Part shown: positions 17,523 to 47,221 of the stretch, one piece after another
Layout: each line of letters opens with the position of its first letter
Numbering within the stretch: position 1 is the stretch's first letter
NCBI GenBank assembly: GCA_963719225.1
Contig: CAVRAY010000001.1
Location: forward strand, 2,720,001-2,784,000
DNA: 64,000 bases
Source: Thermoanaerobaculia bacterium
GTDB lineage: Bacteria; Acidobacteriota; Thermoanaerobaculia; UBA5066
Direction of reading: 5' to 3'
Notes under the pieces: generated by a model
Databases searched by the model: none
Seen by the model: the letters and a program-made list of their open reading frames with translations, nothing else
Told to the model about the DNA's origin: nothing
Position numbers and translations under genes: made by a program

Positions 17523-17690
17523 AGAGAAGAAAAGAAAAAACATTTTGTTTCGGAAATAGAAGAGGAAGAGGGATTTTCTTAGAAGGTGAATGAGCTGGCT
17601 GCCCGCCGCGCAATCGACGCTCAACGGCGCCGCCCGCGCCGCGCCCTATTCACTTTCAAAGAAATCTTCTCGTCTCTTTTTGTCTTGATC
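17521..17690. repeat. Dispersed motif cluster 2: purine tract, convergent motif pair, pyrimidine tract
   Basis: GATTTTCTTAGAAGGTGAAT (17572-17591) and inverted ATTCACTTTCAAAGAAATC (17648-17666). Confidence 0.8.
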
Positions 17691-18341
17691 CTCATCGCCT
17701 GCTCATCACAACCGCGGCCCGCACCGCAGACAACTTCTCTCGCCCCCCCTTCCGCAGAGCGCGGGCTCGCGTCGTGGTACGGGAAGGAATTCGACGGGCT
17801 TCCGACGGCTTCGGGCGAGACGTTCCGGCCCGAGAAGATCTCCGCCGCGCACCGCACGCTGCCGCTCGGCACGGTCGTGGACGTGACGAACGAGAAGAAC
17901 GGAAAGACCGTGCGCGTGAAGATCAACGACCGCGGCCCGTTCGTCGCCGGCCGCATCGTGGACCTTTCGAAGGCAGCCGCGCACGAGATTGCGTCCGTCG
18001 GAGACGGCGTCGTCCCCGTCACGCTTCGCGTCGTGTCGCTCGGAGACAACTTCCGCGTTCGTGCCGGCTCCGACGAGCCGCCCCCCGTGACCGCCGCGAA
18101 CACGGCGACGCGTTCCGAGCCCGGCGCATTCGCCGTGCAGGCCGGCGCGTTCGGAGACGAGGCGAATGCGGTCCGGCTGCGCAACCGACTCGCCGCGCGC
18201 TACCCGAACCCCTTCATCGAGGAATACCAGGGACTCAAGCGCGTGAAGTTCGGTCCTTACCGGACGCGTGAAGAGGCCGATGCCGCGCGGGAATCTCTCG
18301 GCGACATGGGTCTCGCCGGCGTCGTCGTGATCTACCGGTAG
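17586..18341 (+). CDS. rlpA: Septal lytic transglycosylase RlpA (lipoprotein, DPBB plus SPOR)
   Basis: LIA-C lipobox; GLASWYG..F.G..TASGE, AAHRTLP.G, INDRGPF, VQAGAF; start uncertain. Confidence 0.93.
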   Translation: MNELAARRAIDAQRRRPRRALFTFKEIFSSLFVLILIACSSQPRPAPQTTSLAPPSAERGLASWYGKEFDGLPTASGETFRPEKISAAHRTLPLGTVVDVTNEKNGKTVRVKINDRGPFVAGRIVDLSKAAAHEIASVGDGVVPVTLRVVSLGDNFRVRAGSDEPPPVTAANTATRSEPGAFAVQAGAFGDEANAVRLRNRLAARYPNPFIEEYQGLKRVKFGPYRTREEADAARESLGDMGLAGVVVIYR

Positions 18342-18347
18342 ATTCCT

Positions 18348-19469
18348 TCAGCGCCCGCGCATCGGCCGCTGGAACGCGCTCCGGACGAGACGGTCGAGAA
18401 GCTTCGGAAGCGGCAGCCCCGTGGCTTCCCACAGCTTCGGGAACATCGAGATGGGGGTGAAGCCCGGCAGGGAGTTGATCTCGTTCACGAGCAACCGGTG
18501 CGTGCCGCGCTCGAGGAAGAAGTCGACGCGCGCGAAGCCGGCGCCGCCGAGGACGTCGAACGCGCGCACCGCGAGCGCCCGCACCTCGTCGCGGAACGAT
18601 TCGGGCAGATCGCACGGGATGATCGAACGCGAAAGCGTGCCGATGTACTTGTCCTCGTAGTCGTAGAACTCGCGGCCCGGCACGATCTCACCGGGAAGGG
18701 AAGCCTCCGTCGGCCGGCCGGCCTCGCCCTCGAGGACCGAACATTCGATTTCGCGGGCATCGACGCCCTGCTCCGCCAGGACGCGCCCATCCACGAGAAA
18801 CGCCTCCTCGACCGCGGGCGCCAAGCCCGCTTCGGACTTGACCTTCGAGACGCCCACCGACGAGCCGGCGCACGAGGGCTTCACGAAAAGCGGAAACCCA
18901 AGGCGGCTCGCGCGATGCACGATCGACGCGTGGCTCTCTTCCGCCTTCCACTCGGCGCGGGAAAACGCGACGTACGGTACCTGGGGCAGGCCGGCCGCGC
19001 CGAACGCGGCCTTCATGAAGATCTTGTCCATGCCGACGGCCGAGGCCGCGACGCCGAAGCCCACGTACGGGATGCCGAGCGACTCCAGAAGCCCCTGCAG
19101 CACGCCGTCCTCGCCGAACGTCCCGTGCACGATCGGAAAGAGCACCTCGGCTCCCGCTTCGTGCCAGGCGGAGAAGAACGAATCCACGATCTCCGAAGTC
19201 CGCGCCGCCTTGCTGCCCGGCTTGACGCCGTCGAGGAGCAGCTCCTTCGAAGGGCGGGAGAGCTGACGTTCGAGCTCGGTTTTCGACGCGGAAGGCGCGT
19301 GCCACAGCGCGTCTTTCCCGACGAAGAGCGGGATCGCCTCGTACGTGTCCTTGGGGAGATTCTCGAGAAGACACGCCGCCGAGACGAACGACACGCCGTG
19401 CTCGCGCGACGGGCCGCCGAAGACGACGCCGACGCGTCGGCGCGCGCGGACGCGGGGCGCCGAGCTCAC
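18348..19469 (-). CDS. ddl: D-alanine--D-alanine ligase
   Basis: FGGPSREHGVS, HGTFGEDG.LQG, MDK, FVKP..GSSVGV, FYDYEDKY, NEINSLPGFT. Confidence 0.97.
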   Translation of the reverse strand: MSSAPRVRARRRVGVVFGGPSREHGVSFVSAACLLENLPKDTYEAIPLFVGKDALWHAPSASKTELERQLSRPSKELLLDGVKPGSKAARTSEIVDSFFSAWHEAGAEVLFPIVHGTFGEDGVLQGLLESLGIPYVGFGVAASAVGMDKIFMKAAFGAAGLPQVPYVAFSRAEWKAEESHASIVHRASRLGFPLFVKPSCAGSSVGVSKVKSEAGLAPAVEEAFLVDGRVLAEQGVDAREIECSVLEGEAGRPTEASLPGEIVPGREFYDYEDKYIGTLSRSIIPCDLPESFRDEVRALAVRAFDVLGGAGFARVDFFLERGTHRLLVNEINSLPGFTPISMFPKLWEATGLPLPKLLDRLVRSAFQRPMRGR

Positions 19470-19473
19470 GCGC

Positions 19474-21051
19474 TCACCCGAGCGTCACGAGCCGCGCCGA
19501 ATCGATGCCCTCGAGCGTCTTGACCGCTTTGACGAGATCCTGTCCGATCGCGCCGTTCGCCGCGTCGATCCGGACGACGGCGGCTGCCTGGCCGTCCTTT
19601 CCCCGTGCGAGAGCGAGGTCCGAGATGTTCACGCCGCGCGACCCCAGGAGGGTCCCGATACGCCCGACGACGCCCGGCACGTCGCGGTTTGCGATCACGA
19701 GAAGAGTCCCCTCGGGCGAGAACTCGAGTGACAGGCCGTTGACGCCCACGATCCGGCAATGCCGGTCCGAGAAGAGCGTCCCGGACGCGCTTCGGTCGCC
19801 CGCAGACACGGTGACGAGGCTCGCGTAGCCTCCCCCGTCTTCGCGCACGGAATCCGAAACCGAGATTCCGTTCAGCTTCGCGAGAGAAACGGCGTTCACG
19901 ATGTTGACGCCCTCGGCGAACGTCGAGACGACGCCCTTCACGGCGGCCACGACGCAGGCTTTCCGGATCGCCTCCGGTATTCCCGCAAGCGTCACGGTGA
20001 GCTGTCTCGGCGCCTCGGGCATCGACTGCCCCACGAATGCCCCGACCTTCTCGGCGAGGCGCATCCACGGGAGGGCCGCGTGCGGGTCGCCTCCGGAGGG
20101 AAACGGCAGGTTCACCGCTGCGACGAAGGGGGAGCCTTTCAGCGCCTCGGCGAGCATCTCGACGGTCTCCACCGCCACGCGATCCTGCGCCTCGACCGTG
20201 GAGGCCCCGAGGTGCGGCGTGCAGAGCACTTTCGGGTGCTTCACGAGCGAGAAGTCCTTCGGCGGCTCGACGGAAAAGACGTCGAGCGCCGCACCAGCGA
20301 GATGCCCGGAGTCGAGCGCGGCCGCGAGCGCGGCCTCGTCCACGAGGGCGCCGCGCGCGCAGTTCACCAGGATGGCGCCCTTCTTCATCGCCGCGAGCTG
20401 CCGGGCGCCGATGAGATGTTTCGTCTCCGAGCCGCCCGGCGCATGAAGCGAGACGACGTCGGATTTCGCGAGCAGCTCGTCCAGCGAGACGGGTGTCACG
20501 CCGAGCTCGGCGGTCCGCTCCGGCGTCACATAGGGGTCGAACGCGAGAAGCGTGACGTGCCAGGGGCGCAGCCGCGCGGCCACGCGGGCCCCGACCTGTC
20601 CGAGGCCCACGAGGCCCACGGTCTTGCCCTGCAGCTCCGTTCCGACGAACTTCGTGCGCTTCCATTCCCCGGCTTTCAGCGAGGTCTGTGCCTCGGGAAT
20701 CTTGCGCAGGAACGAGAGAAGAAGCGCGATCGCATGCTCCGCCGCGGAGACGACGTTCCCGGACGGAGCGTTGACGACGAGGACCCCGCGCTCGGTGGCC
20801 GCCTTCACGTCGACGTTGTCGAGGCCGACTCCCGCCCGTCCGACGACGCGGAGCTTCTTCCCGGCGGTCAGGAGCTCTCGGTCCACCTGGGTCGCGGAGC
20901 GCACGACGAGCGCGTCGTAGTCGCCGATCGCCGCCAGGAGCGCTCCCCGGGACAGATCGGTGCGGACGTCCGCCACGAGGCCCTCTTTCGAAAGCACCGC
21001 GAGGCCGGTCTGGGAGAGTGGCTCGGCGATGAGGACGCGCGGACCGCTCAC
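19474..21051 (-). CDS. serA: D-3-phosphoglycerate dehydrogenase with C-terminal regulatory/ACT domains
   Basis: GTG 21051; VRSAT, GRAGVGLDNVD, GLGQVG, NCARG, TPHLGASTVEAQ, N.DVPGVVG. Confidence 0.95.
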   Translation of the reverse strand: MSGPRVLIAEPLSQTGLAVLSKEGLVADVRTDLSRGALLAAIGDYDALVVRSATQVDRELLTAGKKLRVVGRAGVGLDNVDVKAATERGVLVVNAPSGNVVSAAEHAIALLLSFLRKIPEAQTSLKAGEWKRTKFVGTELQGKTVGLVGLGQVGARVAARLRPWHVTLLAFDPYVTPERTAELGVTPVSLDELLAKSDVVSLHAPGGSETKHLIGARQLAAMKKGAILVNCARGALVDEAALAAALDSGHLAGAALDVFSVEPPKDFSLVKHPKVLCTPHLGASTVEAQDRVAVETVEMLAEALKGSPFVAAVNLPFPSGGDPHAALPWMRLAEKVGAFVGQSMPEAPRQLTVTLAGIPEAIRKACVVAAVKGVVSTFAEGVNIVNAVSLAKLNGISVSDSVREDGGGYASLVTVSAGDRSASGTLFSDRHCRIVGVNGLSLEFSPEGTLLVIANRDVPGVVGRIGTLLGSRGVNISDLALARGKDGQAAAVVRIDAANGAIGQDLVKAVKTLEGIDSARLVTLG

Positions 21052-22175
21052 GCGGGCTGCCCGGCCCTCGGCCGCATCGAGGCCATGGCCTCCTCGTGAG
21101 CCTTCAGGTAGGCCTCGACGGAGGCAACGTCCACGTCGCCCATGTGGCCGATGCGCACGTTCGTGGGCTTCAGCTTTCCGTAACCGGAGCCCGTCGTCCA
21201 TTTCATGCCCTTGAGGGCCTTGTTCAGCTCTTCCGCGTTCACGCCCTCCGGCGGGATGAGGGACGTGACGGTGGGCGAATGCGCGCCCGCCTCGGCGAAC
21301 ACGCGGAAGCCGTTCTTCGCCGCCCAGTCCTCCACGGCCTTTCGCATCGCGCCGTGCCGCGCCCAGCGGTTCTCGATTCCCTCGGCGAGGATGTGGTCCA
21401 GCTGGATGTCGAGAGCGTAGAGGAGCGGCAGACACGGCGTCGTCGGCGTCTGTTTCTTGGCCGCGAAGGCCTCGATGTCGACGAGGTCGAGGTACAGGCC
21501 GCGGAATTTCTTCTTCTTCGCGGCGGCCATCGCGCGCTCGGAGACGGCGAAGAGTGCGAGTCCCGGCGGCAGCGCGAGGGCTTTCTGCGAACCCGTGAGA
21601 ACGACGTCGAGACCCCACTCGTCCGTCTCCACGCGCGTTCCTGCGACCGACGTCACGGCGTCGGCGAAGACGAGCGCGTCGGAATTCTCGCGAACCACCT
21701 TCGCGATCGCCCCGAGGTCCGAGAGCACGCCCGTGGACGTCTCGCTGTGCACGACGGTCACCGCGGCGTACTTCTTTTCCGCGAGCTTTTTCTTCACGGC
21801 GTCGGGCTTGACGGCCTCGCCCCACTCGAACTTGAGGACGTCCGTCTCCAGCCCAAGACGCGACGCCATCTCTCCCCACTTTCCGGAGAAAGCTCCGTTG
21901 GACAGACAGAGAACGGGACCCTCGACGCAGGAGACGAGCGCGGCTTCCCAGACGCCGGTCGCCGAGGACGCGAGCGTGTGGGCCGTGCGCGCGGTCCGGA
22001 AGACCTTGGGAAGCTTCTCGAGGATTCGTCCGTAGAGGTCCATGAAAGCCTGCGAGCGGTGGGAGAGCATGGGACCGGTCAGCGCCTGCAACACCTGGGG
22101 CCTCACCCACACGGGACCCGGGTTGAAGAAGCGCACCTGGCCGGGAGAGCCGGAGGTCGAATCGAAGTTCGTCAT
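21048..22175 (-). CDS. Class V PLP aminotransferase (probable phosphoserine aminotransferase)
   Basis: FNPGP, HRS..F, HSETSTG, DAVTS, GSQKALALPPG, RIGHMG; coupled to serA. Confidence 0.88.
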   Translation of the reverse strand: MTNFDSTSGSPGQVRFFNPGPVWVRPQVLQALTGPMLSHRSQAFMDLYGRILEKLPKVFRTARTAHTLASSATGVWEAALVSCVEGPVLCLSNGAFSGKWGEMASRLGLETDVLKFEWGEAVKPDAVKKKLAEKKYAAVTVVHSETSTGVLSDLGAIAKVVRENSDALVFADAVTSVAGTRVETDEWGLDVVLTGSQKALALPPGLALFAVSERAMAAAKKKKFRGLYLDLVDIEAFAAKKQTPTTPCLPLLYALDIQLDHILAEGIENRWARHGAMRKAVEDWAAKNGFRVFAEAGAHSPTVTSLIPPEGVNAEELNKALKGMKWTTGSGYGKLKPTNVRIGHMGDVDVASVEAYLKAHEEAMASMRPRAGQPA

Positions 22176-22186
22176 GGCGCTGGATT

Positions 22187-22846
22187 CTACGAGGCCACGA
22201 GGAGAGGCAGAAGCTCTTCGAGATTTTCGACGATGGCGTCAGGAGAACACGCTTCGAGCTCTTTTCGTGTCGCGCTGCCGCTCGGAAGTGCGATGATGGA
22301 AAGTTCGGCCGCCCGGGCCGTGGCGACGTCGATCGGCATGTCGCCCACGAAGATCGTGTCGCGCGCGGGAACCAGGAGCGTGGCCAGCGCCATGAAGACC
22401 ATGTGCGGGGCGGGCTTCGGCGGGAAGCCGTCGTCGGGCCCGGCGACGAAGGCGAACCGGCCCGCGAGGCCGAGCCACTCCAGGAGCGGCCGCGTGAAGC
22501 GGGCCGGCTTGTTGGACGCGATGGCGAGGCGGATGCCACTCTCGAAGAGCCGCCGTGTGACGAGCTCGGCGCCCGGCAGGAGCCGCGTGGACTCGACCCC
22601 GACTCTCTCGTAGCGCTCGCGAAAGAGCCGCACGCCTTCGGCGACGTTCTCCTGCCCGACGGCCTTGGCGACGAGCACCTCGAGGCCGTGGCCGACCATC
22701 CGGCGCGTCTCGTCCCTCGTGATGGGAGGGCGTCCGAAGGCTTCGAGGACCACGCCGAGCGACTCGTGGATCGGCGCGTACGCGTCGACGAGCGTGCCGT
22801 CGAGGTCGAAGATGACGGCTCGCGGGTGGGGCGGGAGAGACGCCAC
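22187..22846 (-). CDS. HAD-superfamily phosphatase (Gph-like)
   Basis: FDLDGTLVD, SNK, KP.P, VGD...D. Confidence 0.9.
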   Translation of the reverse strand: MASLPPHPRAVIFDLDGTLVDAYAPIHESLGVVLEAFGRPPITRDETRRMVGHGLEVLVAKAVGQENVAEGVRLFRERYERVGVESTRLLPGAELVTRRLFESGIRLAIASNKPARFTRPLLEWLGLAGRFAFVAGPDDGFPPKPAPHMVFMALATLLVPARDTIFVGDMPIDVATARAAELSIIALPSGSATRKELEACSPDAIVENLEELLPLLVAS

Positions 22847-23800: not shown

Positions 23801-23815
23801 GCAACCTTGATTGTC

Positions 23816-24425
23816 ATAGAAAGAAGAGAAGACCGGGGGTTTCTTAGAAAGAAAAGAGAATTGAAGATTTTCTTAGAAAGGAAAGAAGACCAGGAACCTC
23901 TGAGAATGAAAATCGGGGGATCGGAGCGGGGTGCCCAGTGGCGCGGTCCGTCACGACTGCGACGACGTCCGGATCGTTCTCGCAGAGCGGCTCCCGGCCC
24001 GTCGCCGCGCGGCACACCTCGATTTTCGGGTAGAGCTCGCTCCGGTATCCCTCGACGACCACGACGTCACACGAGCCAAGCCCATATTCCCCTTCTAAGA
24101 AAACGGACAGAGCCGGCCGCAGGTTGGCTCCAGCCGCGCCCGTGCTCGGGTCCGAAGCAGAAATCTCCGGTGGCCTCCGGTGCACCGCGCTTCGCCGCCC
24201 CGCGACGAGGATCGCGGGCTCGGCGCCCGCCGCCTTGTGGCGCTGCGAGTCCTTGCCTTCGACGTCGGTCTCGTATTCGTGGTCCGTGTGCTTGAGCGAG
24301 CCGACCCTCAAGCCGTCCTTCACGAGCGCCTCGATGAGCTTCACGGCGACGGTCGTCTTGCCCGATTCGTGGGCGCCGGTGACGAGGAGGACCACCGGGG
24401 ATGAAGATCTCTTGGAAGGGTAAAG
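23816..24425. repeat. Dispersed motif cluster 3
   Basis: TTCTTAGAA at 23841 and 23870 within purine tracts; inverted CCCATATTCCCCTTCTAAGAAAA 24081-24103; GATCTCTTGGAAGGGTAAAG 24406-24425. Confidence 0.8.
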
Positions 24426-25607
24426 GAGGCCGCGTTCGCGCGAGGAAGCGAAACGTGCGATGTCGGCCGGAAAACTCTCGATCCAGGAGTCCAGGCTCGC
24501 GCCTTCATCCACGAGCTGCCGGTATTTCGCGGTGCCGGTCAGGAGGTCGATCGCGGGGACGTCGTCGCGGTACTCGTACGCTTCCGTCCGCCAGCGAAAC
24601 CGGTCCGGGTCCAGGTCGTGAAGGGCTTTCAGCAAGCGCAGGTACGTCTCGTACGGTCGGAACGCGCCGCGGTCCGTCACGTGGACCTGCACGCCGCCGC
24701 AGGTTTTTCCCGCGTGCTTCTGGAACGTTGGCTTGAAGACGTGCGGCCGAAAGACGGCGCCGTGGAGTCCGAGGGCGTTCGCCGCGTCGGCCGCTTCCTC
24801 CGCGTCGAGCCACGGCGCGCCGACGAGCTCGAAGGGCCGCGTCGTGCCGCGCCCCTCCGAGAGATTCGCCCCCTCGACGAGGCAACCGCCGGGATAGACG
24901 AGGGCGGTCTCTCGCGTCGGCATGTTCGGGGACGGGAGGACCCAGGCGGGCGTCTCGGCGACTTCGCGGCGCGAGGGCGCGCGGCCGCCCTTGCGCATCG
25001 GCACGACGGTGAGGTCGCAGCCGAGGCGATACTCGGTGTTCAAGAAGCGCGCGATCTCGCCGGGCGTCATCCCGTGGCGGACCGGCACCGGATACAGGCC
25101 GACGAAGGACAGCAGCCTCTCCTCGGGCAGGTTGCCCTCGAGGATCTCGCCGCCGAGCGGATTCGGCCGGTCGAGAACGACGACGGGAATTCCGCGCGCG
25201 GCGCAGGCCTTCATCATCAGCGCCGTCGTCCACACGAACGTGTAGTAACGGCTGCCCACGTCGGGAAGGTCGGAAACCACGGCGTCGAGATCGCGCAGGT
25301 GCTCCGGCTTCGGAGAGAGCTCTTCGAACGTCGAGCCGTAGAGGGAAACGATCGGCACGCTGCAGGACGCGCAGCCCGCCACCGCTTCCATGTCCTGCGC
25401 CGCACCCCAGAACCCGTGCTCGGGCCCGAAGAGGACGCGCACGTCGTACCCCGCGTCGCGAAGCGCGCGCTCGGCCGGGACGAATGCCGACGTCACCGAG
25501 GCCGCGTTCGCGAGAAGGCCGATCCTCTTGCCGCGAAGAACCTCGCTTGCGCTCTCGCCTTCCGTTAACAGCATGTCGAGACCGGTCTTCACGCGCGAAG
25601 GTTTCAC
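23844..25607 (-). CDS. Fusion of NamZ/DUF1343 exo-beta-N-acetylmuramidase-like domain and MobB P-loop domain
   Basis: N-terminal: LFGPEHG, SLYG, D.PDVGSRYYTF, LDRPNPLGG, RHGMT.GE, PSPNMP, SEGRGTT.PFE. C-terminal: GAHESGKTT, G.RVGSLKH.DH..DVEGKDS.RH..AGA, VVEGY...PKIEV. Confidence 0.88.
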   Translation of the reverse strand: MKPSRVKTGLDMLLTEGESASEVLRGKRIGLLANAASVTSAFVPAERALRDAGYDVRVLFGPEHGFWGAAQDMEAVAGCASCSVPIVSLYGSTFEELSPKPEHLRDLDAVVSDLPDVGSRYYTFVWTTALMMKACAARGIPVVVLDRPNPLGGEILEGNLPEERLLSFVGLYPVPVRHGMTPGEIARFLNTEYRLGCDLTVVPMRKGGRAPSRREVAETPAWVLPSPNMPTRETALVYPGGCLVEGANLSEGRGTTRPFELVGAPWLDAEEAADAANALGLHGAVFRPHVFKPTFQKHAGKTCGGVQVHVTDRGAFRPYETYLRLLKALHDLDPDRFRWRTEAYEYRDDVPAIDLLTGTAKYRQLVDEGASLDSWIESFPADIARFASSRERGLLYPSKRSSSPVVLLVTGAHESGKTTVAVKLIEALVKDGLRVGSLKHTDHEYETDVEGKDSQRHKAAGAEPAILVAGRRSAVHRRPPEISASDPSTGAAGANLRPALSVFLEGEYGLGSCDVVVVEGYRSELYPKIEVCRAATGREPLCENDPDVVAVVTDRATGHPAPIPRFSFSEVPGLLSFLRKSSILFSF

Positions 25608-25638
25608 GCGATCGAGTCTAACCGCCGCGGGCGCCTTG

Positions 25639-25669
25639 AAAAGGAAACGGCGGGCCGGGTGGCCCGCCG
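25639..25669 (-). terminator. Rho-independent terminator after the collagen-like gene
   Basis: Minus strand CGGCGGGCC-ACCC-GGCCCGCCG followed by TTTCCTTTT. Confidence 0.7.
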
Positions 25670-25693
25670 CTCCGTTCGAAGGATAGAGAGAGA

Positions 25694-27363: not shown

Positions 27364-27481
27364 TCGCGATTCCGCCGATCCTTCAAGGCGCCGTGACACA
27401 CTGCGGCGAGACGTTGATGTGTCATCCGTTTTCCGCACCCGCTCTGCGCACAGGAATCGGGCGGCCTCGCGGCGGGCGCCT

Positions 27482-28375: not shown

Positions 28376-28409
28376 GGGGGTGAATTGTAGAGGTCGGAAC
28401 GGCTGAGGG

Positions 28410-28910: not shown

Positions 28911-28917
28911 GGCGCCA

Positions 28918-29931: not shown

Positions 29932-29957
29932 GCCGCCTCCCTGAGATCGAGTCTAGC

Positions 29958-30485
29958 TCAGCCGGTCTCTCCCCGCCGCCACCTTCCGCTCTTGCCGCCC
30001 GTTTTCTCGAGGAGGGCGATTTCGCGGATCTCGATGCCCTTGTCCGCCGCCTTGCACATGTCGTACAGCGCGAGCGCCGCGGCGGAGGCCGCGACGAGCG
30101 CTTCCATCTCGTATCCGGTCTTTCCGGTTCCCCTGACCTCGGTCGTGATCTCGACCGCCCACGCCCGACGGCGGGGCTCCAGGCGCACGGCGACCGAGTC
30201 GAACGCGAGCGGATGGCAGAGCGGGATCCACTCGGCCGTGCGCTTGGCCGCCTGGATCCCCGCGAGGCGCGCGACGGCGAGAGCGTCGCCCTTCCGGTTC
30301 ATGGCGGAATCGAGCGAGAGGAAGGCGGTGCTTCCGAGGGACACGAGGGCGCGGGCGCGAGCCGTGCGAACGGTCAGCCGCTTGGACGAGACGTCCACCA
30401 TGCGGGCGCGCCCCTCAGCGTCGAGGTGACTGAGCGGCCGTGCCAGACGGTCCGTCCGCCGGGACTTCGCTTTGGAGCGCTTCAT
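29958..30485 (-). CDS. moaC: Cyclic pyranopterin monophosphate synthase MoaC
   Basis: LSHLD..G.ARMVDVS.K, KGD, AAKRT...IPLCHPL, TGYEMEAL, LYDMCKA, KTGGKSG; the annotated start overlaps the mobA end. Confidence 0.96.
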   Translation of the reverse strand: MKRSKAKSRRTDRLARPLSHLDAEGRARMVDVSSKRLTVRTARARALVSLGSTAFLSLDSAMNRKGDALAVARLAGIQAAKRTAEWIPLCHPLAFDSVAVRLEPRRRAWAVEITTEVRGTGKTGYEMEALVAASAAALALYDMCKAADKGIEIREIALLEKTGGKSGRWRRGETG

Positions 30486-31047
30486 ATTCCTCCGGGGTGT
30501 TGACGTTGAAGAAACCGGACGGAGAGCCGCCCGCCATCGCAGCCGTGACTTCCTCCGGAATGAGGACCGCGTGAAACGAAAGGAGCGCGGCGACGAGGGA
30601 GTAATCGCCGGCCTCGAGACGTGCGCGGAGCGGCGCGAGCGCGGAGCGCCTCCAGACGGCGCACAGCGGCTGCGGCCGCCCGCCCGAAACCGGCACCACG
30701 GCGGGAGCGTGAATCGCCTCGGCGACGTCGAGCAGAGCCGCGAGAAAGGACTCCGGACAGCGCGGCACGTCCGCCGCGAGGACGAGGTTCGTCTCCTCCG
30801 GCGAGAACGCCAGCGCCGTCGCGACGCCGAACGCCGCGGCGACTTCGGGTGCCTCGTCGGTCACGTAGGGAAAGCGCGAGTCGGCGAAGGCTTCGGGGTC
30901 CTTCCCGACGAGTGCGACGCGCCCGCAGACGACTGCCAGCTTCTCCGCCTGATGGAGAGCCATCGGAACCCCCCGGTAAGGCAGGCGCGTCTTGTCGCGG
31001 CCCATCCGCGCCGAGCGACCGCCCACGAGGACAAACCCGTATGGCAT
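30415..31047 (-). CDS. mobA: Molybdenum cofactor guanylyltransferase MobA
   Basis: GFVLVGGRSARMGRDK, A.DVP, QPLCAVW, FNVNTPEEY. Confidence 0.9.
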   Translation of the reverse strand: MPYGFVLVGGRSARMGRDKTRLPYRGVPMALHQAEKLAVVCGRVALVGKDPEAFADSRFPYVTDEAPEVAAAFGVATALAFSPEETNLVLAADVPRCPESFLAALLDVAEAIHAPAVVPVSGGRPQPLCAVWRRSALAPLRARLEAGDYSLVAALLSFHAVLIPEEVTAAMAGGSPSGFFNVNTPEEYEALQSEVPADGPSGTAAQSPRR

Positions 31048-31056
31048 CGTGGCGGG

Positions 31057-31806
31057 ATGCTACCGCCTTCGCCGGGGCCCGCTCGCATCGCGGTCATCGT
31101 TCCGCTGGCGGCCGGCGAAGCAGCGCCACCGGAGATTTTCTTCGAAAGGGTGCTGGGAGCGGAGAAACCCGTTTCACTCGTCGTGGCGGCGGATTCGGAG
31201 ATTTCTTCGAATGTCCGTGAGGCCTTCGCGCGGGCGGGCGCCCGTGTTCACATCTCTACGGCTCCACGCGGACAGCGCCTGCGCGAGGCCGCTCTCTTCA
31301 CCTTCAAAGATTCTTCTCCCTCGTCCTCGTCTTCCTCCTCCTCTTCACCAGAAACTTCTGTCTTCCTCTTTCTCCACGCCGACACACTTCTGCCTCAGCG
31401 CTGGGAGAAGGCCGTCCGCGACGCGATCGCTTCGGGCGCCGTCGGCGGCGCGTTCCGGCTGTCCTTCTCCGGCGGCGGAGCGCGCATGAGGTGGGTCGCG
31501 TTCTGGGCGAACGCCCGCAGCGCGTTCACACGCGTGCCGTACGGCGACCAGGCTCCCTTCGTACGGAATGACGTCTACGAGAGGCTCGGCGGCCATCCGC
31601 CCTGGCCGCTTCTCGACGACTGGGATTTCGCGAGGAGGCTCAGGAACGAGGGTCGGATAATGATCCTCGAGAACGCGGTCGAAACTTCGCCCCGGCGCTA
31701 TCTCGAGCGTGGCGTCGCCCGCACGATCTGGAAGAACTGGAAGACGCTTTGGCGTTTCCGGAGGGGCGCGACGCCGGAAGAGCTCGCGCGGGAGTACCGG
31801 AGGTAG
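31057..31806 (+). CDS. GT2-family glycosyltransferase (TIGR04283-like), with a poly-Ser insertion
   Basis: FLFLHADT.L, GGAF.L.F, PYGDQ..F, GG.P..PLLDD, TSPRRY; start uncertain. Confidence 0.82.
   Translation: MLPPSPGPARIAVIVPLAAGEAAPPEIFFERVLGAEKPVSLVVAADSEISSNVREAFARAGARVHISTAPRGQRLREAALFTFKDSSPSSSSSSSSSPETSVFLFLHADTLLPQRWEKAVRDAIASGAVGGAFRLSFSGGGARMRWVAFWANARSAFTRVPYGDQAPFVRNDVYERLGGHPPWPLLDDWDFARRLRNEGRIMILENAVETSPRRYLERGVARTIWKNWKTLWRFRRGATPEELAREYRR
31134..31375. repeat. Dispersed motif cluster 4
   Basis: GATTTTCTTCGAAAGGGTG 31134; GATTTCTTCGAATG 31200; inverted TTCACCTTCAAAGATTC 31297-31313, then a pyrimidine tract. Confidence 0.75.
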
Positions 31807-31808
31807 TC

Positions 31809-33512: not shown

Positions 33513-33523
33513 CCAAGGCGGGG

Positions 33524-33539: not shown

Positions 33540-33584
33540 CAGGTCCCGGAAGAAAATTCCAGCCGGTGTGCGGACGAGAACCCT

Positions 33585-34787: not shown

Positions 34788-34835
34788 TTTTTTCGTCCTT
34801 TCGGAATCCCAACGCGCCGCCGCGGGCGCCGCGCG

Positions 34836-36209: not shown

Positions 36210-36242
36210 GGACCATTCTAAGCCCGCCCTGATTCATCTGCA

Positions 36243-36278
36243 TGAGAGTCTCGCGCCGCCTGGCGCGCGAGACTCTCA
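36243..36278. repeat. Perfect 14-bp inverted repeat in a divergent intergenic region
   Basis: TGAGAGTCTCGCGC-N8-GCGCGAGACTCTCA. Confidence 0.7.
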
Positions 36279-36281
36279 ACC

Positions 36282-42400: not shown

Positions 42401-43446
42401 TTGATCCGCTCGAGCTGGACGAGCGCCTCGAGCGTTCCTCCCGCGTAGCTCGCGCGCGTCACGTTCACGAGGAGGCCCTTCGGGTCCACGCGAAGGAGGC
42501 CCTCCCCGGTCATCGGAAACGGTCCGAACGCGGCGGCGACGAGGTCGAACGCGCCGTTGATGCGGAAGCCGCCCGGCTCGCCGAAGCGCATGGTGCCGCG
42601 CAGCGCAACGCCGCCGGTGACGGGAAGGCCGAGCCCGAAGACCTTCGACAGCGCCTCGCCGGTCGTCTCGGCGCGCGCGGCGAGCGCGAGAACGGGCTTC
42701 CTCAGATCATCGACGCCCCCCGAGGCCTCGAGCTTGAGCTTGTCGCCGCGCAGCCTCAGCCCCGTCAGGTGCACGCGCCCGGGCGCGAGAATCACTTCCG
42801 CGCCGATCGCGAACTCGAGCGTCTCGTTCTCCTCCAGCCGGAATCGTCCCTTGCGGCACGCGAGCGCGAGATGGGTCACCGTACGGCTGCGGCCGGCTCT
42901 GGCCGTGACCGCGGCGTTCTGGAGCACCGCGTCGATCTCGGAGTCCCATTCCCGGAAGCGGAGCGTCGCGCGCTGGATGACCGCCTCGCGGAGGCGGACG
43001 TCGACGCCGCCGTCGCCTCCTCCCGCGAAGGCATCGAGAATCGACTGCAGGTTCGTGGTGCCGTCCGGGAACACCTCGACGACCACGCGCGGTGAGACGA
43101 CGCGAAGCTTCGGGATGTCGACGCGGCTCTTCGTGATCGTCGGCAGGCCGCGCAGCTCGATCTCGGAGGCCGAGAAGGCCGGGCCCGCGAGGCCCCGCCG
43201 GTCGTTCGCCACCGAGACGTCGCGCACGAGAAACGCGAAGGGGACGAGCGCGAGGTCGAAGCTCCCGATCGTGACGGCCCGGCCGATCTTCGCCGTCAGA
43301 AGCGTTTCGGTCCGGCGGCGCAGCAGCTCCTGGAAACGCGAGGAGCGAAAAACCGCGTACAGGACCAGCGCCGTGAAGACGAGAAGAAGCGTGAAGAGAC
43401 GGACGAGCCGGACTTGCGTGAGGGAGAGGTGCGGAAGGCGGCGCAT
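39463..43446 (-). CDS. tamB: Translocation/assembly module TamB-like protein
   Basis: N-terminal TM anchor, 1327-aa beta-rich body, C-terminal F.SDP.LS...IVSL...TVGK; coupled to the Omp85 gene. Confidence 0.85.
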   Translation of the reverse strand: MRRLPHLSLTQVRLVRLFTLLLVFTALVLYAVFRSSRFQELLRRRTETLLTAKIGRAVTIGSFDLALVPFAFLVRDVSVANDRRGLAGPAFSASEIELRGLPTITKSRVDIPKLRVVSPRVVVEVFPDGTTNLQSILDAFAGGGDGGVDVRLREAVIQRATLRFREWDSEIDAVLQNAAVTARAGRSRTVTHLALACRKGRFRLEENETLEFAIGAEVILAPGRVHLTGLRLRGDKLKLEASGGVDDLRKPVLALAARAETTGEALSKVFGLGLPVTGGVALRGTMRFGEPGGFRINGAFDLVAAAFGPFPMTGEGLLRVDPKGLLVNVTRASYAGGTLEALVQLERIKNPPLPVRIALRGHGLDFEQFFGDLGLRGTGLEGRVDLDTTLTFGRGGIEHADGIGRMTLTPEPGRPSAVEGRFALPVSGGGPLEVRDGHLLFDGVNFATAGGARIRVDGGIRLGTWEPDLQLEIASDDLAEVERLADNFYPAIQNEPLTPPLGLGGTGRIAARLSRSFSDPRIEGRLDATGFVLRNVPFGTASAAFLVDRNVATFSPFTATDGNASLSLTGKIGWGGALMGAYRLDGLVAEFSAWPIERVLKFLDIDLPITGAGTGRLPLNGVTPALSGRIPLVLTQASLWGQKIDALEGVLAFEKDRIAVENATARLADGTARLGGFFRYADRAYELDLDLRSIPIARLDAAEGLPLTGTLTGQVKGSGTLDEPNLSVAALVADAAWSGSPLERIGTQLEVQVKAVRGVYTFLARAPDAAEATLEPDATRDRWRGRIEVSSLAPFASLFGLPEEARLDGRLSAEVSLSAGKDVDALRGAGTVSAARVTAYGRTLELRAPAVLKAENGKVSLEKLALVELPREDLPPAPPTALTISGSVGLSAPHAVDVAAVGSFDAALLKPALEGMNAAGRATVDLRVSGTAAKPVLLGRLSLDGVDLTSSAGTAFESMTGTLLFSEDRVTVGDFSVRYNGGTVDLGGFISLSGLKPTSFRLSAHVGHVRASPFDGFRATFSGDLVLLGDTALRTVRGDLSLDRAIYSRDFSLDIASLLARKRAAVTAGNPTAFDAVTLDVRLVAPASSIEVRNNVARLKLSGELFVRGTWGHPLLFGEVTGEEGGRLTLQGQRYEILSAKVLFSNPLRIEPFFELEARGTVSRYQVSFGLTGTPSRLVPRFSSDPQLSEAQIVSLMTSGDIPQNAVAGAPVGGSPISSDDSVSKAARELLASLATSAVTSRTKEFFRLDRFQIDPTITGTSFDAPRVTVGKSLGKDFNATVSFVLSSNQQQIITLDYQLTPAAAIQARLDENGIYSLELRIRQRLR

Positions 43447-43453
43447 CTCCTCG

Positions 43454-44353
43454 TTACCGAGCCGCGTTCTCCCGCTCGCCGCCGAACGAGAGCTTCCGCG
43501 CGAGGACGTCGAAGAAAGACGCTTCCGAGGCCCGCACGAGAGACACCGAGCCGGAGGACCGGGCGATCGAGATCCGCGTCGTCGAGCCCACGGGGAATCC
43601 CTCCTGGCCGTCGAGCGTCAGGAAGACGTCGGTGGGGTCGTTCTCCACGGAGAGGTCGAGGCGGACGGAATCCGGAAGGACAAAGGGACGCAGGGTCAGT
43701 GTGTGGGGGCAGATGGGCGTGAGAACGAGCGCCGGCAACGTCGGCTCGAGGATGGGGCCGCCCGCCGAGAGGTTGTAGGCCGTGGAGCCCGTCGGCGTCG
43801 ACACGATGAGGCCGTCTCCCCGGTACCGCGAGACCATGCGCCCGTCGACGTCGACGCGGATCGTCGCGATGCGCGCGAGCGCCGACTTCGAGAGCACGGC
43901 GTCGTTCACGACGTGATAACGGCGCGGCGCGCGCGTTCGATCCGACACGCGGACCGACAGGAGGCGCCGTCTCTCGAGGTGCGCCGTTCCCGCGAGCGCT
44001 CTCTCGAGCACGTCCTTCGATTCGTCCGGCCTGCAGGTCGTCAGGAAGCCGAGCGTGCCGATGTCGATCCCCAGGACCGGGACGCCGGGCGCGGGATGCC
44101 GCGCCACCGAGAGGAGCGTCCCGTCCCCTCCCAGCGTCACGACGAGATCCACGAGACGCGCGATCTGCGCGCGGGGCGCCCCGCCCGAAACGCCGCGGGC
44201 CCGCGAGGACTCGACGTCGTGGATCACCGTGATCCCGCGGCGCGAGAGCTGGCGCTCGAGCTTGCGCGAAAGAGAGATCGCCGCCGCGCTGCTGTAGCGC
44301 GTCACGAGACCCACGCGCCGCACGCGACGGCCCGGCCGAAGCCCGGATTTCAC
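43454..44353 (-). CDS. nadK: NAD kinase
   Basis: LGGDGTLL, G.LGFL, ND, GDGLIVSTPTGSTAYNLSAGGP, PICPH. Confidence 0.96.
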   Translation of the reverse strand: MKSGLRPGRRVRRVGLVTRYSSAAAISLSRKLERQLSRRGITVIHDVESSRARGVSGGAPRAQIARLVDLVVTLGGDGTLLSVARHPAPGVPVLGIDIGTLGFLTTCRPDESKDVLERALAGTAHLERRRLLSVRVSDRTRAPRRYHVVNDAVLSKSALARIATIRVDVDGRMVSRYRGDGLIVSTPTGSTAYNLSAGGPILEPTLPALVLTPICPHTLTLRPFVLPDSVRLDLSVENDPTDVFLTLDGQEGFPVGSTTRISIARSSGSVSLVRASEASFFDVLARKLSFGGERENAAR

Positions 44354-45099
44354 CCCGGAAGTGTAGCGGGATTCCTCCGGAACACGGCGAGGAGCTCCAC
44401 GTTTCCTTCCGCCCCGGTGATCGGGGATTCGACTGCTCCGCGGCTGGTGAGAGAGAGCCGCGCGGCGGCCGCCACGACGCGCGCCAGGGCGCGCTCGCGC
44501 ACGGCTTCATCGCGCACGATGCCGCCCCGGCCGACCTCTCGGCGCGTCGCCTCGAACTGCGGCTTGACCAGGACGAGGACGTCGGCCTCGTCCGCGAGAA
44601 GCGGCACCGCCGCGGGCAGAACGAGCGTGAGCGAGATGAACGACAGGTCGGCCACGAGAAGCGAGGGAGCCTCCGGCACCTCGGCCCGGCTCAGGAACCG
44701 CGCGTTCACTTTCTCCCGCAGGACGACGCGCGGGTCGTTCCGAAGGCGGGCGTGGAGCTGGCCGTAGCCCACGTCGACGGCATAAACCCGCGAGGCGCCG
44801 CGTGCAAGGAGGACGTCCGTGAACCCTCCGGTCGACGCGCCCAGGTCGAGACAGATCCGCCCTTTCGGGTCGATCTCGAAACGAGTCAGGCCGAAGTCCA
44901 GCTTCACTCCCCCTCGCGAGACCCAGGGATGCTCGGGCTCCCCGACCGTGATTTCGGCGTCCAGGGTCACGGGCGTTCCGGGCTTGACCCGCTCGTGGCC
45001 GGCGACCGAAACCCGGCCCGCGAGGATCAGCGCCTCGGCCCGGGTCCGCGATTCCGCGAGACCGCGTTCCACGAGCGCGACGTCGAGACGTTTTCTCAG
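44350..45099 (-). CDS. tlyA: TlyA rRNA 2'-O-methyltransferase
   Basis: RKRLDVALVERGL..SR, WVSRGG.KL, LDLGASTGGFTD, AVDVGYGQL, DLSFISL, LVKPQFE, GNVE; CTG start inferred. Confidence 0.95.
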   Translation of the reverse strand: MRKRLDVALVERGLAESRTRAEALILAGRVSVAGHERVKPGTPVTLDAEITVGEPEHPWVSRGGVKLDFGLTRFEIDPKGRICLDLGASTGGFTDVLLARGASRVYAVDVGYGQLHARLRNDPRVVLREKVNARFLSRAEVPEAPSLLVADLSFISLTLVLPAAVPLLADEADVLVLVKPQFEATRREVGRGGIVRDEAVRERALARVVAAAARLSLTSRGAVESPITGAEGNVELLAVFRRNPATLPG

Positions 45100-45468
45100 A
45101 GGGTCACGACGACCTTGAGGACGTCGCCCCCCTGCCGCGCCAGCGCGAAGGCCTCGGCCGCTCGCGCGAGAGGCACGCGGTTCGTCACGACGTCCCGGGC
45201 GCGGACGGCCCCGCGCTCGAGGAGTGTCAGGGCCTCCCGGAAATCCCGCGCGCCGCAAGAGTAGGAAAAGAGCATCGAAAGGTCGCGCAGGTAAGGCAGG
45301 TGCGGCTCGATCGTCCAGGTCTTGCCGGGCTGAATGGGTGAATAGAAGACGACCCGAGCCGCGGGGCCTGCCGCGGCGAGCGCCGCGGCCACGGCGGACT
45401 CCGCAGTCGGCAACACAAAGATGACGTCCGCGCCCGCGCGATCTCCTCTCTTCACCTTCTCAGAAAGG
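45090..45468. repeat. Dispersed motif cluster 5 (weaker)
   Basis: GTTTTCTCAGAGGGT 45090; inverted TTCACCTTCTCAGAAAGG 45451-45468 after a pyrimidine tract. Confidence 0.55.
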
Positions 45469-46112
45469 TCCTCTTCGGGCGCCAGCACCTGGTCGAAGCC
45501 GAGTCGAAAGGCATGGGCTCGCCGCGCGGGATCGGGATCGCAGCCGACGAGCGTCCCGGCGCCCGCCGACTTCGCGACGAGACCGAGCAGGATGCCGTTC
45601 GCCCCGAGGCCGATCACCGCGACGGAATCCCCCTCCGCGATCCGCGCCCGGCGCACCGCCTTCACCGCGCACGCGAGCGGCTCGACGAGGGCGCCGTCCT
45701 CGAACGAGAGGGCGTCCGGAAGGCGCAGCGTGTCCGTCGCGACCGCGGCGGCCTCGACGCGCACGTACTCCGCGAGCCCGCCTGGGTGGAGGCGCGTCTT
45801 CTTCCACTCTGGGCACATGACGTCCTCTCCGGCCCGGCAGAAGCGGCACGCGCCGCAGGCCGCGTGGTGGTGAACGACGACGCGGTCGCCGGGCCTGACG
45901 GCGTCGACGCCGGGTCCGGTCGCGGCGACGACGCCCGCCGGCTCGTGACCAAGGACGACCGGCGCCTTCGACGCGACGTACCACCCCGTCGTGTCGCTCC
46001 CGCAGATTCCGACGGCCTTCATGGCGACGGTGATTTCGCCCGGGCCCGGGACCGGCTTCTCCATCTCCACGACGGCGATGTCCTCCAGCGACCGGACGAG
46101 GACAGCCCTCAC
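45096..46112 (-). CDS. Zinc-dependent alcohol/polyol dehydrogenase (MDR)
   Basis: GTG 46112; GICGSD, GHE.AG, CGACRFC......MC, EPLAC, GLGANG. Confidence 0.9.
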   Translation of the reverse strand: MRAVLVRSLEDIAVVEMEKPVPGPGEITVAMKAVGICGSDTTGWYVASKAPVVLGHEPAGVVAATGPGVDAVRPGDRVVVHHHAACGACRFCRAGEDVMCPEWKKTRLHPGGLAEYVRVEAAAVATDTLRLPDALSFEDGALVEPLACAVKAVRRARIAEGDSVAVIGLGANGILLGLVAKSAGAGTLVGCDPDPARRAHAFRLGFDQVLAPEEDLSEKVKRGDRAGADVIFVLPTAESAVAAALAAAGPAARVVFYSPIQPGKTWTIEPHLPYLRDLSMLFSYSCGARDFREALTLLERGAVRARDVVTNRVPLARAAEAFALARQGGDVLKVVVTL

Positions 46113-47221
46113 GGGATCAGGGCGACCTTCATCGCGGCTCTCCTCTCGACGAGGTCGAATGCCTCGCGCCACTCGGCGAGCCCCCGCCTCTCTTCGACGA
46201 GCGAGCCCACGGGGATCGCGCCTTCGCAGAGGAGGGCGAGGGCCGTGTCGACGTCGCGCGGCGTGTAGTGGAAAGCGCCTGTGATCGACACCTCGCGATA
46301 GTGCACCGCGTACGCGTCCACGCTCACGCGCGCCCCCTCCTGCATCCCGGCGAAGAGCACCACCGTGCCTCCATTCTCCGCGAGCGGGGGGAGCGCCGAG
46401 ATCACCTCGGGATCGCCGGTCGTGTCGAGGATCAATGAAAATCTTGCTCCCGAGCCGCGCGTGCCTTCGATGCGCAACGGCATCGGAGGATTTTCTTTGA
46501 AGGTGAATATGGGTGGCGGAGTGCCGGCGCCCGGGTCGCGCGACGAGCCCGCGATGCGCGCCACCTCCGCATTCATCCTTTCGAAGAAAGCGAGTCTCTC
46601 CGGTTTCCTTCCGGCGACGACGACCCGGCGCCCCGCGCCGCTGGTCCTCTCTCTTCCTTCTCCTCTTTCTTTCCCCCTCAAAAGAAAAAACATCATCGCG
46701 GCGATCGGGCCGGTCCCCACGACGAGAACGTCCCCGCCGTCTGCGGCGTTGGTTCTGCTCAGCGCGTGGACGACACTGGCCAGAGGATCCAGCAGCGCGG
46801 CCGCCTCGTCGGAGAGGTCCGGCGGGATTCTCCTGAGGCCGCTCGTCACGATGCGCTCCGGGACGAGCAGAAAATCCGCGAAGGCGCCGAAGAGAGGCCT
46901 CTCGAATGCGGTCGCGCAGAGATTCTCCCGGCCCCCGCGGCAGTCGTCGCAGCTCCCGCAGGGACCCGACACGGCCGAGGTGACGCGCTCGCCGGGCGAA
47001 AAGGGCGTTCCCGGGCCCGTCTCCTCGACGACGCCCGCGAACTCGTGCCCGAGGGTGAGCGGAAACGGAAACTTCGGATGCCCGCGCTTCGCGAGCTTGA
47101 AGTCGGTCGCGCACGTGAGCGCGACGCGAATGCGCACGAGGGCCTCGCCCGCCGCCGGACGGGGCGTCGCGACCTCGCGGAGCGCGAGCCGCTCCGGCCC
47201 CTCCGAGACGAGAGCCCGCAT
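46109..47221 (-). CDS. Zinc-dependent alcohol/polyol dehydrogenase (MDR) with low-complexity insertions
   Basis: ATG 47221; TCATDFK, GHEFAG, CGSCDDC..GRENLC, GTGPI. Confidence 0.88.
   Translation of the reverse strand: MRALVSEGPERLALREVATPRPAAGEALVRIRVALTCATDFKLAKRGHPKFPFPLTLGHEFAGVVEETGPGTPFSPGERVTSAVSGPCGSCDDCRGGRENLCATAFERPLFGAFADFLLVPERIVTSGLRRIPPDLSDEAAALLDPLASVVHALSRTNAADGGDVLVVGTGPIAAMMFFLLRGKERGEGRERTSGAGRRVVVAGRKPERLAFFERMNAEVARIAGSSRDPGAGTPPPIFTFKENPPMPLRIEGTRGSGARFSLILDTTGDPEVISALPPLAENGGTVVLFAGMQEGARVSVDAYAVHYREVSITGAFHYTPRDVDTALALLCEGAIPVGSLVEERRGLAEWREAFDLVERRAAMKVALIP
46489..46693. repeat. Dispersed motif cluster 6
   Basis: GATTTTCTTTGAAGGTGAATATGGG 46489-46513; inverted ATTCATCCTTTCGAAGAAAG 46571-46590; pyrimidine tract, then TTCCCCCTCAAAAGAAAAAACAT 46671-46693. 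Confidence 0.8.

Follow-up and report, generated by a model that had tools for sequence, protein, structure and literature searches.

Short dispersed repeats of the REP (repetitive extragenic palindrome), BIME (bacterial interspersed mosaic element) and REPIN type are lineage-specific and number in the hundreds per genome, where they usually form inverted pairs around a short spacer; REPs are palindromic, lie outside genes and occur with a RAYT gene, and the spacers of REPINs are conserved. A different kind of repeat has been described in Rickettsia (RPE, Rickettsia palindromic element), where the excerpt of PMC10969869 available reports a dispersed palindromic repeat found in frame in unrelated metabolic genes, to which it adds a fold-compatible peptide. 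Uptake sequences, as treated in the available part of PMC2817400, are short lineage-specific motifs common in coding DNA which raise the frequency of the peptides they encode and fall at poorly conserved residues. Here we describe an element with some features of each of these systems, found in a 64,000-nt stretch of DNA from a Thermoanaerobaculia bacterium (GCA_963719225.1; G000 C1:2720001-2784000, referred to as the window in its whole length) belonging to an assembly of 4.75 Mb with 68% G+C in two contigs. The element consists of a short DNA word, the arm, one form of which is translated as FTFK[ED] in RlpA, a glycosyltransferase and a Zn-dehydrogenase. These peptides very probably have their origin at the DNA level, and our leading explanation, in which we place about even confidence, is that FTFK[ED] is the in-frame arm of a lineage-specific dispersed element which is likely to be a paired recognition site, read in trans by a DNA-binding factor with sequence specificity.

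The FTFK[ED] motif and its reading frames

The initial annotation of the window had attributed the FTFK[ED] peptides of three unrelated proteins to a single DNA motif, and this is borne out by the pattern TTCAC[CT]TTCAAAGA, which matches the window three times compared with a mean of 0.00 in 100 shuffles. The TTCACYTTCAAAGA matches at 17649-17662 (+), 31297-31310 (+) and 46494-46507 (-) give FTFKE in RlpA, FTFKD in the glycosyltransferase and FTFKE in the Zn-dehydrogenase, respectively. The form proposed for the motif was right in part, as the TTCAC(C/T) form is real and the CAAAGA form, with 18 copies in the genome, is a minor and stop-free variant of the main motif TTCACCTTCTAAGAAA. Followed by a pyrimidine tract, the main motif is found in 41 exact copies and in 235 copies at ≤2 mismatches in the whole genome, on both strands in about equal numbers, and the 12-mer CCTTCTAAGAAA (128 genome sites) is the top 12-mer once G+C-rich words and homopolymer runs are excluded. 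In the literature searches made, judged in part from titles and abstracts, we found no description of the motif, its strings turning up in two unrelated papers only, and viral contigs gave chance-like single matches, with no contig having several.

The arm is ~16–25 bp long with the consensus (CCCTC)TTCACCTTCTAAGAAA(TC), after which comes a pyrimidine tract poor in G; conservation ends at about -9 and +17, and the 25–30 nt beyond the AAA end contain few G and are rich in C and T. It is asymmetric and not itself a palindrome, the sole quasi-palindromic core being CTTC[T/G]AAG. The chief variable position is base 10 (the T of TAA), which is T, then G, C and A in order of use; in frame 0 the T form is read as F-T-F-stop and the A, G and C forms as FTFK, FTFE and FTFQ, and in arms within genes the T is swapped out wherever it would create a stop. 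The initial annotation had correctly seen the motif as acting on DNA and had missed that FTFK[ED] is the frame-0, stop-removed variant, that it is one arm of an outward-facing pair, and that the motif occurs only in one genus and in the genus that is sister to it.

Gene positions across the genome were taken from a crude codon-usage gene caller built for this analysis (3908 genes, with 89.7% of the genome coding). On this basis 147 of the 235 copies (63%) lie in open reading frames (ORFs) in whichever frame is open, 69 of them sense and 78 antisense, and 88 are intergenic although only ~10% of the genome is. In the corresponding proteome, FTFK[ED] was observed 3 times (0.48 expected), FTF[KEQR]E 11 times (1.4), SPSKK 20 times (0.34), HLLR[KN] 8 times (1.3) and, from antisense copies, FLEGE 36 times (1.9). 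Because the caller truncated the rlpA and glycosyltransferase genes, the 3 FTFK[ED] matches leave out the copies in these two proteins. As every open frame is enriched, the constraint falls on the DNA and not on the peptide. If selection at the protein level were instead maintaining FTFK[ED] as a functional peptide, the retention of FTF[KE]E in 14 of 18 Zn-dehydrogenase orthologues with variable flanks and the FTF peptides in the N-region of several signal peptides would find an explanation; the enrichment of motif DNA in four other frames and in non-coding DNA would not, nor would the congeneric glycosyltransferases which carry the motif word in a different frame as SSPSEEI, and we give this alternative next to no credence.

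Outward-facing pairs of arms

More than half of the arms sit in outward-facing inverted pairs. A reverse-complement partner (≤4 mismatches, ≤320 nt) is present on the TTCACC side of 128 of the 235 copies and on the AAA side of only 4, with tandem partners for 10 of 235 on either side. Close pairs (<400 nt) are (-,+) in 22 cases, (+,-) in none, (+,+) in four and (-,-) in two, and among the places listed in other genomes there are 11 (-,+) close pairs and again no (+,-) pair. Beyond 400 nt all orientations are equally common, and there is no preferred (+,-) distance up to 20 kb. We recognise 106 modules with the order purine tract, TTTCTTAGAAGGTGAA, 35–300-bp spacer, TTCACCTTCTAAGAAA and pyrimidine tract, in which the spacers have a median length of 82 nt (mostly 50–120 nt) and the same G+C content as the genome (68.2%). 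In 34 of the 106 the two flanks are coding and share strand and frame, and the others are found at gene starts or ends in similar numbers.

The bases of an arm are no better matched to those of its own partner than to those of other modules (1548 complementary positions versus 1558 ± 16 in 2000 permutations), and the outer tracts show no specific complementarity (7.63 versus 7.38 of 24 positions, p = 0.14). Since an arm follows the family consensus rather than its partner, reading by a protein or guide fits better than base pairing between arms, and this together with the single inverted arrangement makes a trans-acting reader with fixed geometry the most economical explanation. Such a reader, whether protein or guide, would recognise the arms, selection or drive on the DNA would keep or spread the element, and proteins would tolerate arms only in loops, linkers, signal-peptide N-regions and tails. 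The narrower reading, that the pairs are sites bound by a protein, would fit the arrangement of the arms and is put forward tentatively, as something we lean slightly away from.

The pairs might act as RNA, with the purine arm resembling a Shine–Dalgarno sequence and the pyrimidine arm the 3' end of the 16S rRNA, the two forming a hairpin with a role in translational control or in bidirectional transcript termination. The 16S 3' end (G000 C1:905491 region) reads GGATCACCTCCTTTCTAAGGG, so that the motif could be viewed as TCACCT plus TCTAAG with 4 nt missing, a likeness which is only a lead; several modules straddle start codons, including those of rlpA and of genes we read by eye as etfA and a MacB-like permease, and with the (-,+) order the stem is followed by a U/C-rich tract whichever strand is transcribed. 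Yet there is neither covariation between partner arms nor complementarity between the tracts, arms have no orientation preference in intergenic DNA (context classes of 34, 33, 11 and 10 copies relative to genes) or in ORFs, and the GTG of the arm opens a good ORF in ≤9 of 235 copies. Loops of 35–300 nt are also unlike those of intrinsic terminators, and Rfam matches in the window are to tRNAs alone, and we consider a role as RNA very unlikely.

Three other roles for the arms were tried and rejected. Intergenic copies showed no preference for tandem, divergent or convergent gene pairs, which counted against a promoter or terminator; the arm is not a general translation start given the few good ORFs opened by its GTG; and a micro-gene within the module was dismissed as only 5 of 106 modules have a GTG-to-TAA ORF and spacer lengths are spread evenly modulo 3.

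Inverted repeats of one consensus flanking short segments, many of them intragenic, are also what would be expected of invertons, with a global invertase flipping the spacer and so switching genes. A flip would place a stop in 18 of 23 intragenic modules tested (the ORF stayed open in 5 of 23 compared with 58% of 612 controls), which could serve as an off switch. Against this, an invertase should be served by both inverted arrangements and only one exists, the orientation of the rlpA spacer is identical in 10 of 10 pair-carrying species, and the spacers are mostly only 50–120 bp. The serine recombinase family had no match in this genome and matches in 11 of 28 congeners, in a search not extended to tyrosine recombinases. 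There was also no strand-changing joint among the joints listed from four metagenome runs, the contigs being those of related strains, which drop rare forms. (Among the matches listed for sequencing runs with the window sequence there is no RNA run, and the contigs have shares of ≤0.19.) On balance we consider invertons an extremely improbable explanation.

Taxonomic range, orthologues and host proteins

The 12-mer is present in all 28 other genomes of the genus (21–210 copies each) and in seven of eight from the sister genus (1–16 copies each), and has no match in eight other genera of the family, represented by 26 genomes (0/26). A 14-mer gave the same picture, with 16–100 copies in each of 18/18 other genomes of the genus and none in 12 from two other families of the order (0/12). 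The module architecture is alike in the sister genus, and we note that the arm there (L197-L211, G039) is often followed by ATCTCC, 3–6 nt and GGTCTCC, an extra word not observed in the present genome; in 100 kb sampled from a sister-genus genome, a small amount, there was no other over-represented A+T-rich 10-mer that could be a dialect of the motif.

In the glycosyltransferase (ORF 30472-31806, translated as ...EAALFTFKDSSPSSSSSSSSSPETSVFLFLHAD), the arm variant TTCACCTTCAAAGATT at 31297..31312 (+) is read as FTFKD and the pyrimidine tract at 31310..31351 (+), flagged as a repeat, is translated as poly-Ser. The protein is a relative of TIGR04283 and not a certified member of this family, as the match (E 1e-44, 152.8 bits) falls below the 182-bit cut-off and covers profile positions 73-221 only, corresponding to residues after the motif. 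The gene most likely starts near 31057 and not at 30472; the 5' part of the 444-codon ORF (30472-31056) has no family match and no coding signal according to the caller, and probably represents the kind of ORF over-extension that is common in DNA of high G+C. We aligned 17 sequences from the genus with five outgroup sequences (two loci with split matches were left out) and found FTF[KE][DE]S plus the Ser tract in 5 of 17, namely this genome and its four closest relatives, one of which has the unit duplicated. Seven other congeners have FTFEE or FTFKE ~25 residues upstream at a cost of one extra codon only, and in several of the remaining congeners the motif DNA is found in another frame, for example TCTTCACCTTCAGAAGAAATC, which is read as SSPSEEI. 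Neither site carries the segment in any of the outgroups (0/5), and on the evidence of the alignment the motif arose at two sites of one glycosyltransferase in separate lineages of the genus.

The Zn-dehydrogenase (46109-47302, -; ADH_N and ADH_zinc_N domains; translated as ...PPPIFTFKENPPMPLRIE and ...PPPIFTFKENPP) contains a degenerate module in which the arm variant TTCACCTTCAAAGAAA at 46492..46507 (-) gives FTFKE (residues 239-243), and the degenerate partner arm TTTTTTCTTTTGAGGGGGAA and its purine tract at 46646..46690 (-) are translated as FFLLRGKERGEGRE, with FFLLRGKE. The MMFFLLRGKERGEGRE tract is at 46667-46696 (-), and between the two arms there is a second degenerate purine-strand arm (TTTCTTCGAAAGGATGAA, 46572..46589, -) read as AFFERMN where outgroups have RLAERWG. 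A further arm variant, TTCACCTTCTCAGAAA, lies antisense in the neighbouring Zn-dehydrogenase gene (45451..45466, +). In an alignment of 18 genus and five outgroup sequences (three loci left out), all 18 from the genus have a segment like FFLLRGKE where outgroups have IALARARG of equal length, and a purine-tract insert of 5–12 residues lies 3' of it. The FTF[KE]E insert of ~30–35 residues is found in 14 of 18 genus sequences, duplicated in two of them, with a PLFS remnant in one and no insert in three, and is lacking in all outgroups (0/5). The spacer between is native Rossmann-fold sequence which can be aligned with the outgroups.

A module in the window is found at the 5' end of rlpA, downstream of purB, with arms at 17575 and 17649. 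A purine tract at 17548..17574 (+), assigned from its sequence and the G-poor or pyrimidine flank profile of the motif family, lies outside the left arm, an exact copy of TTCACCTTCTAAGAAA on the minus strand (17575..17590) which reads TTTCTTAGAAGGTGAA on the plus strand and contains a candidate rlpA GTG start. This is followed by a 58-nt spacer (17591..17648, +) predicted to encode an Arg-rich N-terminal region, the right arm TTCACTTTCAAAGAAA (17649..17664, +) encoding FTFKE, and a pyrimidine tract (17665..17690, +) which on translation is the start of the lipoprotein signal peptide (IFSSLFVL). The ORF (17586-18341, translated as ...RRALFTFKEIFSSLFVLILIAC) is that of RlpA, with DPBB_1 (PF03330, 9.8e-25) and SPOR (PF05036, 2e-16) domains and 127 bits for TIGR00413 against a cut-off of 82. 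Among 17 informative loci in the genus, ten have the pair, two a zero-spacer palindrome (TTTCTTAGAAGGTCCTTCAAGAAA), two the forward arm only and three no motif, with two more being non-informative at contig edges, and no outgroup locus has the motif (0/7).

The arm-borne GTG is a plausible candidate start for rlpA, and by our reading the frame from this codon to the signal peptide is open in 8 of 8 translated paired loci (of 10 paired). We compared rlpA starts between window positions 17522-17590 and loci L143, L149, L152, L156 and L160-L166, and in at least four outgroup loci the start, read by eye, is a GTG or TTG that shares bases with the purB stop. For the four congeners lacking the left arm, the only readable in-frame start is a CTG overlapping the TGA, which may represent a non-canonical or coupled start.

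The initial annotation had also ascribed low-complexity inserts and stop codons to the motif and its neighbouring tracts. The poly-Ser tract, MMFFLLRGKERGEGRE and the NamZ-MobB tail were all located, and both of the TAA stops it named lie inside degenerate copies. Two tandem degenerate arms at 23840..23884 (-) form the C-terminal tail and stop of the NamZ-MobB fusion (23844-25607, -; NamZ_N, NamZ_C and MobB), which ends ...LLSFLRKSSILFSF* with its TAA in the copy at 23840-23855; the copy at 23869 has an outward-facing partner, TTCCCCTTCTAAGAAA, antisense within the same gene (24087..24102, +). The TAA of rdgB (Ham1 family, 10356-10931, -), a gene beyond the range given in the initial annotation, is provided by the degenerate arm TTCCTATTCTAAGAAG at 10352..10367 (-). 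Two metagenome runs contain contigs of related strains in which 17524-17741 and 23888-24036 have given way to 104 and 150 other letters, respectively, and as both segments hold or adjoin motif arms and vary, we regard them as hypervariable spots. Elsewhere in the window there is a cluster of five tRNA genes at 2007-2503 (-).

Across all these loci, arms have been gained, lost or duplicated at some and have persisted at orthologous places in others. Four further arms, two in lysA, one in ispE (both names being by-eye readings) and one intergenic, are kept at orthologous places in those relatives which could be aligned (4 or 5 of the 5 searched), with base 10 varying and some arms partly degenerate. 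It should be noted that one outgroup row in each alignment is from an unpublished genome (G019); the other outgroups agree and no claim depends on it.

We also observed paralogous genes of ~900 codons in a tandem array (G000 C1:2293328-2319741) and elsewhere in which the purine-strand arm is read as FFEGE or FLEGE. From their sequences we read these as Ser/Thr kinases which would carry the arm in the beta-3/alpha-C loop, and the relatives compared have no counterpart of one such kinase gene (PF00069, C1:1632893-1635250) at the syntenic position.

The positions of the segments were mapped on AlphaFold2 models predicted from the orthologue alignments. The Zn-dehydrogenase model has a mean pLDDT (predicted local distance difference test) of 84.1, with values under 50 in three stretches, residues 185-196 (corresponding to the purine-tract insert), 227-232 and 244-257, and FTFKE (239-243) is modelled as a short strand between the last two of these. 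In the glycosyltransferase model (mean 88.5), FTFKD (81-85) directly follows a helix (71-81) and the poly-Ser tract (residues 85-97) scores under 50. The motif segments are thus in or beside low-confidence loops of models that are otherwise confident. Together with the enrichment in all open frames, the two glycosyltransferase sites and the outgroups without the segments, this agrees with the proposal in the initial annotation that a DNA-level constraint reshapes proteins at permissive loops and termini.

Mobility, chromosomal distribution and known systems

A number of observations weigh against the paired recognition site. No reader protein was identified in searches that covered the RAYT/Y1 and serine recombinase families. 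Only 38 of the 147 copies in ORFs have a clear coding signal on both sides, meaning that many are at gene edges or in ORF over-extensions. Copies are of low density, at ~1 per 20 kb, and their spacing along the chromosome is Poisson-like (coefficient of variation 1.09 versus 0.99 ± 0.08), giving no sign of an architectural role. They are also concentrated ~4-fold in the terminus-centred half, which would also suit tolerated selfish DNA. Two further observations resemble mobility more than selection on sites: one intergenic module of ~110–160 bp behaves as a clean insertion or deletion between species, being found in this genome and G017 and missing at that place in G016, G012 and G013, and FTFEE units are tandemly duplicated in three orthologues (L011, L180 and L184).

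These last observations, the enrichment of copies between genes and in the terminus half, and the zero-spacer palindrome at rlpA in two congeners could all be accounted for if the modules were non-autonomous mobile elements, MITE-like (miniature inverted-repeat transposable element) or foldback-like, which insert as units and leave the peptides as in-frame survivors in the manner of Rickettsia palindromic elements. The content of the modules argues otherwise, as an all-against-all BLAST of 100 spacers found no similarity except between kinase paralogues, the spacers have the G+C content of the genome, no palindromic spacers were found, and the spacer of the Zn-dehydrogenase is native. Target-site-like direct repeats in the modules' own flanks are no better than in shuffled controls (longest match 6.03 versus 5.94 and similar), several arms arose by substitution with length unchanged, and with neither (+,-) pairs under 400 nt nor a preferred (+,-) distance up to 20 kb there is no full-length element with these ends. 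No match was found in this genome to the RAYT/Y1 transposase (PF01797) or serine recombinase families; RAYT matches are present in two of 18 congeners but in all six genomes of a motif-free sister family. The densest clusters of arms contain ordinary housekeeping genes and no 'home' gene. On balance we judge insertion of mobile units to be unlikely, and continue to prefer the paired recognition site.

An IS110-family element was tried as the source of the motif and rejected because its insertion sites are unrelated to the motif. The genome has ~4.5 copies of a 1525-bp repeat with 99% identity and a long 3' non-coding end (G000 C1:2198824-2200348, 2200813-2202334, 2206287-2207811 and 1111421-1112942, and in part 2209322-2210162), which by eye appears to encode an IS110-family transposase. 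A conserved right flank (CGCTCGCCGCTGA..GATATCGTTAGAC) is common to three copies, suggesting that one specific target was used repeatedly, and a motif-like word, TTCTCCTTCTAAGAAA, is found 58 nt from one end.

We placed dnaA on contig C2 and took the terminus to be near C1:2.0 Mb, where the GC skew changes sign. Copies number 10–24 per 200 kb at C1 0.8–3.2 Mb, 1–8 elsewhere on C1 and 0–5 on C2. Regular chromosomal spacing was rejected in view of the Poisson-like distribution, and a replication-oriented signal was rejected in the absence of strand bias by replichore. As a side observation on tracts, pure purine or pyrimidine runs of ≥15 nt are ~3-fold more frequent than first-order Markov expectation (164 versus 52 per Mb), poly-A/T 12-mers occur 163 times in this 68% G+C genome, and there is a run of 69 T at G000 C1:57607.

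The genomes in which uptake sequences have been counted are of about 2 Mb. If the motif were a DNA-uptake or recombination-drive sequence accumulating by biased uptake and recombination, its restriction to one genus and a sister genus, its presence on both strands and the poverty of copies on the replication-origin contig and at the ends of the main contig would be in keeping. The 63% of copies in ORFs is likewise within the 34.5–65% given for uptake sequences in the available part of PMC2817400, which also reports origin by substitution at poorly conserved residues and the enrichment of peptides in several frames, both seen here. That source gives 765–1,892 copies per genome compared to ~1 per 20 kb here. 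Furthermore, the rule of outward pairs with 35–300-bp spacers (128 versus 4) is without counterpart in uptake models, and neither the flanking purine and pyrimidine tracts nor the terminus-half bias is expected, leaving this a decidedly improbable origin.

We also give a small chance, similar to that of uptake, to an undescribed templated process that would write the arms, either by adding a purine tract plus arm to both 3' ends of a break or by guide-directed patch conversion. This would explain the outward pairs, the arms copied from a master, the slippery tracts of variable length, and spacers that are native in some modules and new in others; if true, it would be a new class of selfish genome-editing system that rewrites coding sequence.

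The significance of the case is that in a genus of uncultured Acidobacteriota a DNA-level signal overrides the protein sequence of conserved enzymes; affected are the Zn-dehydrogenase, glycosyltransferase, RlpA and NamZ-MobB and, by our by-eye readings, LysA, IspE and a Ser/Thr kinase family. A 16-bp word has been acquired repeatedly under an unusually strict pair rule, and the usual drivers were not found in this genome. For annotation, it should be borne in mind that poly-Ser and Glu/Arg/Gly-rich inserts, false extensions of ORFs and additional stops and starts arise from the motif and its tracts in this lineage. Either a reader protein or templated writing, if true, would be a new way in which genome and proteome co-evolve.

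Finally, we compared the element with known systems. It has no common interior (100 spacers) and no target-site duplications over shuffled controls, which sets it apart from MITEs. Like invertons and invertible promoters it has inverted repeats of a common consensus around short segments, some of them intragenic; unlike these, it has a single inverted arrangement, shows no flip among 10 species, and is in a genome where no serine invertase was found. It resembles the uptake signal sequences (USS) of the Pasteurellaceae and the DNA uptake sequences (DUS) of Neisseria, so far as the part of the source available describes them, in being a short lineage-specific motif on both strands in coding DNA, but its density is roughly 20-fold lower than their fairly even ~1 per kb, and the pair rule, tracts and terminus-half bias are its own. 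The likeness to RPEs is that of an in-frame dispersed DNA repeat within unrelated genes, whereas in the excerpt available RPEs are conserved throughout their ~150 bp and give one conserved peptide; here only the 16–25-bp arms are conserved around an unrelated and often native interior, the arm is read in at least five frames, and substitution is a further source of arms. With REPs and REPINs it has in common hundreds of short lineage-specific repeats in inverted pairs, but the arms are asymmetric, 147 of 235 are in ORFs, the spacers are unrelated and this genome has no RAYT match. As the element lacks defining features of each of the RPEs, uptake sequences and REP/REPINs, we have filed it under none of them: it is a dispersed repeat invading genes, set apart from REP/REPIN by the features of those families given at the outset.

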